From the UHGV virus genome UHGV-1877853: a stretch of 12,158 bases of DNA. The stretch is one strand, 5' to 3'. Positions 1,690-2,750 of the stretch are shown in pieces (position 1 is the first letter of the stretch; every line of letters starts with the position of its first letter). This DNA is from a virus. The notes under the pieces were generated by a model. That model did not search any database and was not told the origin of the DNA. It saw only the letters and a program-made list of their open reading frames with translations. Made by a program: the position numbers and the translations under genes.

Positions 1690-1807
1690 CCACAATACAA
1701 CCTTGTTGTCGCAAAAAGATCGCATATGCGATTGTTTATTAGAAATAGAAATCGCCATATAGGCGAATAGTCGATCTCAGTGCATAACATAAGGAAATCA
1801 ATAACAT

Positions 1808-2713
1808 ATGCCAAATTTACCGATGGGCGGATCGCAGGGTGAATTACCCTTAGTACCTACAGTAGAAGTTGTTGCTGATGGCATTCCTATGGGGGTGCTT
1901 AATGATGGAACCCCTTATCTAACTCTTTACGGTTTAGCCAAATTATGTGGCATAGATGAAGCACCTCTTCGAATGTTTACATCTAACTGGGAGACTGAAA
2001 AAAATAAGCCAAGAGGACAAAAAGTAGCTGCATACTTAGCTGAGAAAGGATTTAACAACGTTGACCGACTGTATACCCGCGTCATAAATAGCTCAAACGT
2101 TGAAACACATGCTTATCCTGACTATGTTTGTATGGCTATCCTCCGTTACTACGCTCTAGATGCCACCAATTTTGATAGGTCAGTCGCAATAGGTAATTTT
2201 GTTCGCTTGGCTGAGTACACGCTTAAGCGAATGATTTATGAAAAGTCAAATTACAACCCAAATGCTTCAATAGATATCTCATTCGAGAACTATAGAGCAA
2301 GGATTAAGCTAAACGATCAGATACCGACAACTCATTTTGCAGTATTCAGAGAGATAGCTGACATTGCCATGAACCTGATCGGAGGAGGATTCCCAATGGA
2401 TGACACCACATCTTTGGATGGAAGTGTTGGAATTCACTGGGGAAAGTATTGGACAGCTAATGGCCTATCTGAGAAATTCGGGGAAAGGGTGCAGTACCCA
2501 CATCTATTCCCCGAAAATTACAGGCAGTCAGCTGCAAATAAGCATATAAAAGCTTGGATTTATCCTATTGAGGCACTTGGCGTGTTCAGAAAATGGCTAC
2601 ACGATAATTACGCAATGGAAAAACTGCCAAATTACCTTGGGAACAAAAAGATTAGTAATGCCTCCGAGCTATTAGAGTTGATAAAAAAACCAGCACTCCC
2701 AAATAAGCATTGA
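1808..2713 (+). CDS. Hypothetical 301-aa protein occupying the rexA/rexB slot; possible KilA-N/Bro-N-like N-terminal domain; candidate prophage-encoded exclusion/abortive-infection protein (BstA-like hypothesis)
   Basis: Long ORF on the cI strand with an AAGGAA ribosome-binding site 7-8 nt upstream, followed by an intrinsic terminator. The region is visibly AT-rich compared with flanking lambda-like DNA. The translation does not resemble RexA or RexB as recalled. Confidence 0.8.
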   Translation: [301 protein letters not shown]

Positions 2714-2725
2714 TCTCCACCACAA

Positions 2726-2750
2726 CCCGGCATCTGCGCCGGGTTTTCTT
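2726..2750 (+). terminator. Rho-independent terminator ending the cI-cargo transcription unit (tImm-like position)
   Basis: CCCGGC (2726..2731) / GCCGGG (2738..2743) stem with a 6-nt loop, followed by TTTTCTTT. Confidence 0.6.

Follow-up and report, generated by a model that had tools for sequence, protein, structure and literature searches.

The DNA analysed here, hereafter the window, is a 12,158-nucleotide stretch of the viral genome UHGV-1877853. It comprises the immunity and early-left region of a lambdoid prophage, in which cro, cI, OL3-OL1/pL and N are all of the lambda immunity type. Our subject is the single gene between cI and OL, a member of the BstA family of prophage abortive-infection proteins, together with a short DNA element, aba (anti-BstA), that most likely straddles its start codon. 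The position is the usual one for bstA, which typically follows the repressor gene of its prophage directly, at the place held in lambda by rexAB (Owen et al. 2021, PMC8585504). Upstream lies the lambda-type cI repressor gene (976..1689, plus strand), a 237-amino-acid (aa) open reading frame (ORF) whose DNA is 100% identical to cI of Escherichia coli 2012C-4431. After a spacer (1690..1807) comes bstA, a 301-aa ORF on the same strand (1808..2713, ATG start) taken from the ORF list and profile matches. It is preceded by a Shine-Dalgarno (SD) sequence, AAGGA, at 1791..1795, and an intrinsic terminator for the cI-bstA transcript follows on the plus strand at 2724..2745, with a T tract reaching to 2752. 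The 8-bp stem of this terminator has six GC pairs and is followed by TTCTTTG, and its equivalent in phage CL707 is annotated as 'Timm'. The far edge of the slot is formed by the operators OL3, OL2 and OL1 and the promoter pL (2902..2964, plus strand), recognized from sequence, a promoter scan (TTGACA-17-GATACT for pL) and the CL707 annotation. N begins at 3193, and cro occupies 675..875 on the minus strand. From 554 to 1687 the window is 98.4% identical to the immunity region of CL707, in which cI, oR, oL, pRM, pL and Timm are annotated. The first-pass annotation of this DNA had placed a 301-aa ORF with its own ribosome-binding site and terminator in the rexAB slot of a lambda-immunity prophage, and all of this is borne out. 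It had also called the ORF AT-rich, which holds marginally: the GC content is slightly lower than that of the window (41.3% versus 44.4%).

Membership of the BstA family, earlier an unconfirmed guess, is now agreed upon by PADLOC, PHROG and PF26567. The protein matches the PADLOC BstA model PDLC02356 (E = 2.9e-106, residues 8-283) and PHROG 6287, 'BstA abortive infection system, replication inhibitor' (E = 4.9e-135, residues 5-301). A scan with the PADLOC defence hidden Markov models (HMMs) returned BstA and a weak helix-turn-helix match, and nothing else. In a large protein collection, PF26567, which UniRef names 'BstA-like C-terminal domain', is precomputed for 112 of 113 homologs, namely the identical cluster representative P0001 and 111 of the 112 others. 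The identical protein in RefSeq is called 'BstA C-terminal domain-containing protein'. Local scans of the 301-aa protein against NCBIfam and against a copy of Pfam that apparently lacks PF26567 gave no match, and a profile search against PDB sequences found no relative (best E 1.1, a beta-galactosidase). The ORF is intact and full length and keeps 30 of the 30 invariant family residues. The identical protein is named in at least three RefSeq genomes and represents a 206-member cluster, and the bstA DNA is about 99.8-99.9% identical in about 20 E. coli genomes. In global alignments the protein is 42.3% identical to BstA-BTP1, encoded by the Salmonella prophage BTP1, and 91.4% identical to its counterpart in phage CL707 and E. 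coli 2012C-4431. We conclude that ORF 1808..2713 is a member of the BstA family and a distinct allele of a known prophage abortive-infection protein. The BTP1, Ec and Kp representatives block the replication of heterologous phages by abortive infection (PMC8585504), and the gene is of an already known kind, described as a prophage defence, detected by PADLOC and named in recent RefSeq annotation.

Three alleles are distinguished below: allele A, that of the window; allele B, the type of CL707 (EF120459) and 2012C-4431; and allele C, the type found in O111 and other Shiga toxin-producing E. coli (STEC). Allele B appears to be the one that was tested experimentally as BstA-Ec. The primer NW_761, with which Owen et al. 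cloned bstA-Ec from strain NCTC10963, ends in GTCCGCAGCAAGAGACTTTATACG. CL707 and 2012C-4431 have exactly this sequence immediately behind the stop codon of cI; the window lacks it. Because of this exact match we equate the tested locus with allele B, the link from NCTC10963 resting on the primer match and the listed match length. The first-pass annotation had offered an uncharacterised single-gene candidate defence as an alternative, a description that no longer fits a gene whose DNA-matched BstA-Ec allele has been tested from the same slot.

BstA of BTP1 is accompanied by a self-immunity element. The BTP1 aba is 63 bp long, comprising 29 bp upstream of bstA and the first 34 bp of the gene, and is bounded by CCCGCC direct repeats with a spacing of 56 bp; self-immunity is lost when one G in either of them is changed to T (PMC8585504). 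The element, which is both necessary and sufficient, works at the DNA level, whether in cis or supplied on a high-copy plasmid (PMC8585504). At the corresponding place in the window, two direct repeats surround the SD sequence and the ATG. Copy 1, GATCTCAG (1773..1780), and copy 2, GATCGCAG (1830..1837), lie 57 bp apart, at -35 and +22 relative to the ATG. Measured from the invariant methionine of the MGVL motif, the repeats stand at -116/-59 in allele A, at -115/-59 in BTP1 and at -115/-58 in allele B, where the unit is ATCCCT. Across the 65 bp equivalent to aba, alleles A and B are identical at 39 of 65 positions and have in common mainly the GATC cores and the SD block, ATAAGGAAATCA, which is nearly the same in BTP1. 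Judged from the sequence, aba of allele A most likely straddles the bstA start codon, at 1773..1837.

The surroundings of copy 1 hold further structure. A hairpin in the spacer (1752..1766) ends 6 nt upstream of it, and a palindrome at 1717..1733, AGATCGCATATGCGATT, contains at 1718 the sequence GATCGCA, a third copy of the unit, 55 bp 5' of copy 1. The palindrome scores weakly as a terminator, does so on both strands, and occurs only in alleles A and C. The idea that this copy belongs to a general three-site array was set aside: GATC is present at -171 in only two of 24 alleles (A and C), and no third repeat copies were found at other loci. A scan of the window against Rfam matched no family.

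Whether the paired repeats are a property of the family was examined in two sets of loci, each locus being anchored on the MGVL codon and the 170 bp upstream being scanned for exact direct repeats of at least 6 nt. The first set combined reference loci with 34 bstA loci taken from species-representative genomes of the Alpha-, Beta- and Gammaproteobacteria, the cyanobacteria and a number of further phyla. Repeats were spaced by 57 bp in 15 loci and by 56 bp in eight, and any other spacing from 20 to 100 bp occurred in at most four. A repeat at one of these two spacings was present at 21 of 37 loci, compared with 2.0 +/- 1.4 (maximum 7) in 500 dinucleotide shuffles, and control regions gave zero to four loci at either spacing. 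The second, independent set, 80 IMG/VR loci that reduced to 30 aba-region clusters, 25 of them new, reproduced the peak (57 bp in eight, 56 bp in four, all other spacings in at most four). When the sets were merged, a repeat of at least 7/8 identity at 56/57 bp was found at 44 of 63 non-redundant loci (shuffles, 4.4 +/- 2.1), and any other pair of spacings at no more than 11.

The repeat unit varies by lineage: it has a GATC core in enterobacteria, is CCCGCCA in the BTP1 group and GAGAAC.ACC in the NCTC8623 group, and resembles GGCCACCC in alpha- and beta-proteobacteria. Units reach 16 nt, as in TAACTCCGGCCACCCC, and a Klebsiella phage locus carries TGGTCA at -118 and -61, 57 bp apart. An assignable start codon with an SD sequence is in most cases located between the two copies. 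Two distant loci, L012 (-127/-71) and L022 (-133/-76), have as their 56/57-bp unit AGGAAATC or TGAAATC, which resembles AAGGAAATCA, the SD block common to the aba regions of BTP1 and the enterobacteria; the recognised element may include this block.

The alleles related to the window form an enterobacterial class, class I. Among 24 non-redundant members, 17 have GATC precisely at -116 and 21 have it precisely at -59, with hardly any further occurrence in the interval from -200 to +100. The downstream copy falls inside codons 8 and 9, and codon choice there is strongly biased: Gly8 is GGA in 17 of 17 cases (31% elsewhere in these genes), and Ser9 is TCC or TCG in 23 of the 24 alleles (19% elsewhere). 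Because these biased codons lie in a predicted disordered tail of the protein, the constraint acts on the DNA. The repeat cores of this class, including those at 1718, 1773 and 1830 in the window and those of loci L008-L010 and L052-L077, are also sites for Dam methylation (GATC), and it is conceivable that self-immunity is linked through them to the hemimethylated, replicating state. A Dam-dependent mechanism as a general rule was discarded, since the BTP1 repeats are without GATC. In the class-I alleles L071, L072, L069, L070 and L067 (about -122 to -105 of MGVL), a GC-rich hairpin holds copy 1 in its loop, as GTGCCGATCCCGGCAC does in L071.

Comparison of the three alleles reveals that the repeats follow bstA. 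Alleles A and B share a 100% identical cI gene. Their spacers and codons 1-18 (1696..1875) cannot be aligned (42-55% identity), 1876..2115 shows 72-85% DNA identity, and from 2116 to OL identity is about 99%. The proteins differ accordingly: 24 of the 26 differences fall in residues 2-93 (10 of them in residues 19-93), and only two of the 208 residues after residue 93 differ. Allele C, located behind a different repressor (WP_000250473), presents the opposite arrangement. It is 100% identical to allele A over 1680..2119 except for four substitutions, and beyond 2120 identity is only 65-90%. Both junctions fall on the conserved YPDYVCMA motif (about 2111..2143, codons 102-112), the most conserved of the family, which suggests that this motif is a homology anchor for module exchange. 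Since allele C combines the same 5' module with a different cI, and allele B a different module with the same cI, the spacer and the 5' end of the gene travel with bstA and not with the repressor; they recombine as a block. Among 5,426 complete E. coli genomes, 5' module A is present in 33, and the 3' body or a diverged form of it in 43. The four A/C substitutions, at 1777, 1779, 1781 and 1789, are confined to the 13 bp immediately 3' of the copy-1 GATC and could reflect a micro-conversion tract or selection on the flank of aba. Allele C carries an exact GATCGC repeat pair. We had at one stage read the co-segregation in A, B and C as proof that the N-terminal domain reads aba, and have downgraded that argument, as physical adjacency alone explains co-segregation.

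An AlphaFold2 model of the protein built with 60 homologs (mean predicted local distance difference test score, pLDDT, 85; predicted template modelling score, pTM, 0.55) fits an organization into two domains that pack loosely against each other. The coding part of the 5' module (1808..2119) specifies a disordered tail (residues 1-12) and the core of a KilA-N-like domain (residues 13-104), and the 3' module (2120..2713) specifies the end of the N-domain and the BstA C-terminal domain, the presumed effector, for which no structural or sequence relative was found in the PDB. The N-domain weakly resembles winged-helix/APSES DNA binders (fold scores were weak), and Foldseek comparison with viral models gave weak matches enriched in proteins named KilA-N, Bro-N or antirepressor. 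No HMM match to Pfam KilA-N (PF04383) or Bro-N (PF02498) was obtained with the 301-aa protein (E<=1) or with the 60 homologs. With weak Foldseek matches and no HMM match, the KilA-N/Bro-N-type domain named in the first-pass annotation is plausible at the level of the fold and is not a demonstrated membership. The HHpred result of Owen et al. agrees with a KilA-N-like N-domain (PMC8585504).

Taken together, these features make it probable that the window carries an active BstA gene that is coexpressed with the repressor and prevents superinfecting phages from replicating at the expense of the infected cell, and that aba at 1773..1837 spares the induced prophage. Expression, the defence phenotype, the function of aba and the reader of its repeats we infer by homology to BstA-BTP1, -Ec and -Kp (PMC8585504); for the phenotype we draw on the 91% identity with the BstA-Ec-type allele. 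No plus-strand sigma-70-like promoter was found by the promoter scan in the spacer 1690..1807, and expression of bstA in the lysogen by pRM read-through is plausible, the pRM and pRE transcripts of cI being the presumed source. Transcription by read-through from the repressor promoter would end at Timm. On infection by a heterologous phage, BstA would gather at the replicating phage DNA; replication would be blocked and the infected cell would die, and the population would thereby be protected. On induction, the prophage would escape its own BstA through aba acting in cis. In this mechanism BstA itself would recognize the two repeats as half-sites in a fixed arrangement, and the spacer, aba and residues 1-104 would form an exchangeable specificity cassette on a conserved C-terminal effector module. 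That aba is a bipartite site throughout the family, with lineage-specific half-sites 56-57 bp apart that are read by the N-domain, and that the cassette recombines onto a shared effector, is a possibility that we put forward tentatively.

Several observations weigh against this interpretation. A repeat of the required quality at 56/57 bp is absent from 19 of the 63 loci, and nine of the 24 class-I alleles are without a perfect GATC pair. The window's own copies differ at one base (GATCTC versus GATCGC), and in BTP1 one altered base in a repeat is enough to abolish aba. This mismatch is mitigated by L008 and L009, which likewise have T in copy 1, and by the intact GATC in both window copies, a pair canonical for the class; for these reasons we dropped the idea that the window aba is naturally defective in the manner of BTP1 aba-mut1. 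Co-inheritance of aba with the N-module could merely reflect their adjacency, and the KilA-N assignment of that module draws on weak fold scores without a Pfam HMM match. We have assumed that bstA is expressed from pRM, and cI and bstA are separated by a palindrome (1718..1733, 6-bp stem) that weakly resembles a terminator. Finally, the prophage copy in the window may be partly decayed, because of the cII fusion and deletion described below.

The main rival for the repeats is autoregulation, in which they would primarily be operators through which BstA or another factor controls the translation or transcription of bstA, either instead of serving immunity or in addition to it. The enclosure of the SD sequence and start codon by the repeats at most loci with an assignable start, the DNA-binder-like appearance of the N-domain and the fixed position of the repeats relative to the coding sequence all speak for such a role. 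Yet in BTP1 the 63 bp with terminal repeats are necessary and sufficient for self-immunity, and work in trans as untranscribed plasmid DNA (PMC8585504), and the window architecture matches that aba in register. Control of bstA and immunity are not mutually exclusive, and we judge it unlikely that regulation is the primary role.

We consider it more improbable still that decay or a change of role has left the gene as a BstA homolog without defence function, such as a KilA-N/Bro-type regulator or an antirepressor-like protein in a degenerating prophage. The fusion of cII to the next gene in this prophage copy, the occurrence of KilA-N/Bro-N-like folds in antirepressors and the imperfect repeat copies would fit such a view. 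It is opposed by the intact, full-length ORF with all 30 invariant residues, by the recurrence of the identical protein in at least three RefSeq genomes and of near-identical DNA in about 20 E. coli genomes, by the 206-member cluster that the protein represents, and by a C-terminal region of 208 residues with two differences from the BstA-Ec-type allele.

The first-pass annotation had also proposed an inverted repeat within the gene, TTCGCTT (2202..2208) and AAGCGAA (2225..2231), as the cis-acting anti-BstA element. The repeat is present, its extended hairpin folds at -13.4 kcal/mol as RNA, and it is retained in alleles A, B and C; retention in A and B is uninformative because the coding DNA there is about 100% identical. 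Counting exact 7-nt arms with loops of 3-30 nt, bstA contains four inverted repeats, three of them parts of one longer repeat at 2477..2515, against 1.8 expected in a shuffled gene of the same size (p ~0.13), and the repeat is thus no more than expected by chance. With this chance-level frequency, complementarity that falls to 6/7 in L008/L009 and 4/7 in the Yersinia nurmii allele and is not conserved outside close alleles, and a BTP1 aba that lies at the gene start and consists of direct and not inverted repeats, we reject 2202..2231 as the cis element, a role that is hardly credible.

Near-identical prophages were found next to sbcB in O25:H4-type and other E. coli strains. The window from 384 to 12158 is 99.97% identical to a P22-like/lambdoid prophage adjoining sbcB in E. 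coli SK0189, and for the bstA region (1600..2900) identity is 99.9% to strains that include ZH063, SaT040 and one of type O25:H4. About 212 bp present in SK0189 are missing from the window, with a junction near 384..399. A minus-strand ORF at 179..616 joins residues 1-56 of a lambda-type CII, with the change F51V, in frame to a hypothetical protein encoded next downstream, of which residues 22-90 are included, and because of this in-frame fusion and deletion cII is probably inactive. The gene after N (about 3530..4153) is annotated as 'Nmad5 family putative nucleotide modification protein' in near-identical genomes, and the same Nmad5-annotated gene accompanies bstA allele B in E. coli 2012C-4431. 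In the early-left operon, a 322-aa ORF (5241..6209) contains a long E/A/K/R-rich coiled-coil segment and is annotated only as a coiled-coil domain protein.

Set beside known systems, the locus is closest to the BstA-Ec type, which likewise follows an identical lambda-type cI protein (WP_001274755.1), precedes Timm and OL, encodes 301 aa and has GATC-type repeats 57 bp apart (-34/+23 of the ATG in allele B); the flanks of its repeats are (G/A)ATCCCT, compared with GATCnCAG in the window. BstA-BTP1 resembles it in having the gene, with a terminator of its own, behind cI on the same strand, in encoding a two-domain protein and in having terminal direct repeats in the same MGVL register (56 bp in BTP1, 57 bp in the window), and differs in protein sequence (42% identity), in the repressor and in the repeat unit (CCCGCCA versus GATC(G/T)CAG). 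Similarity to KilA-N, Bro-N and APSES domains is too low to call membership. The RexAB proteins of lambda are expressed with the repressor in lysogens and have an abortive-infection/exclusion function. Their genes occupy the same cI-to-Timm slot as the window bstA, and we know of no cis-acting DNA element for self-immunity to Rex. Two genes are involved in lambda, whereas the window slot holds one ORF, and the ORF list and the defence-HMM scan place no rexA and rexB pair there. Rex exclusion is discussed alongside BstA by Owen et al. (PMC8585504).

The bstA gene of the window is in itself ordinary; what the locus adds is the bipartite 56/57-bp architecture and the A/B/C chimeras. Two questions left by Owen et al. 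are the means by which aba DNA silences BstA and the basis of cognate specificity (PMC8585504). In the searchable literature the repeats are described for BTP1 only, with no mapping of the Ec and Kp elements, and the 56/57-bp architecture across the family is not reported, and no mechanistic follow-up on BstA or aba after 2021 was found there. The natural chimeras and a family-wide rule for the position and form of aba bear on both questions, and the 56-57 bp spacing of lineage-specific half-sites makes that of silencing directly testable. If the half-site and cassette model is true, the self-immunity specificity of allele A would differ from that of the tested BstA-Ec, with a killing module common to both, and the Dam-site half-sites of the enterobacterial class could tie self-recognition to the state of replication. 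The family-wide rule also makes aba predictable in any bstA locus, which would help in judging whether a BstA-carrying prophage can still induce and in designing phages that evade BstA.

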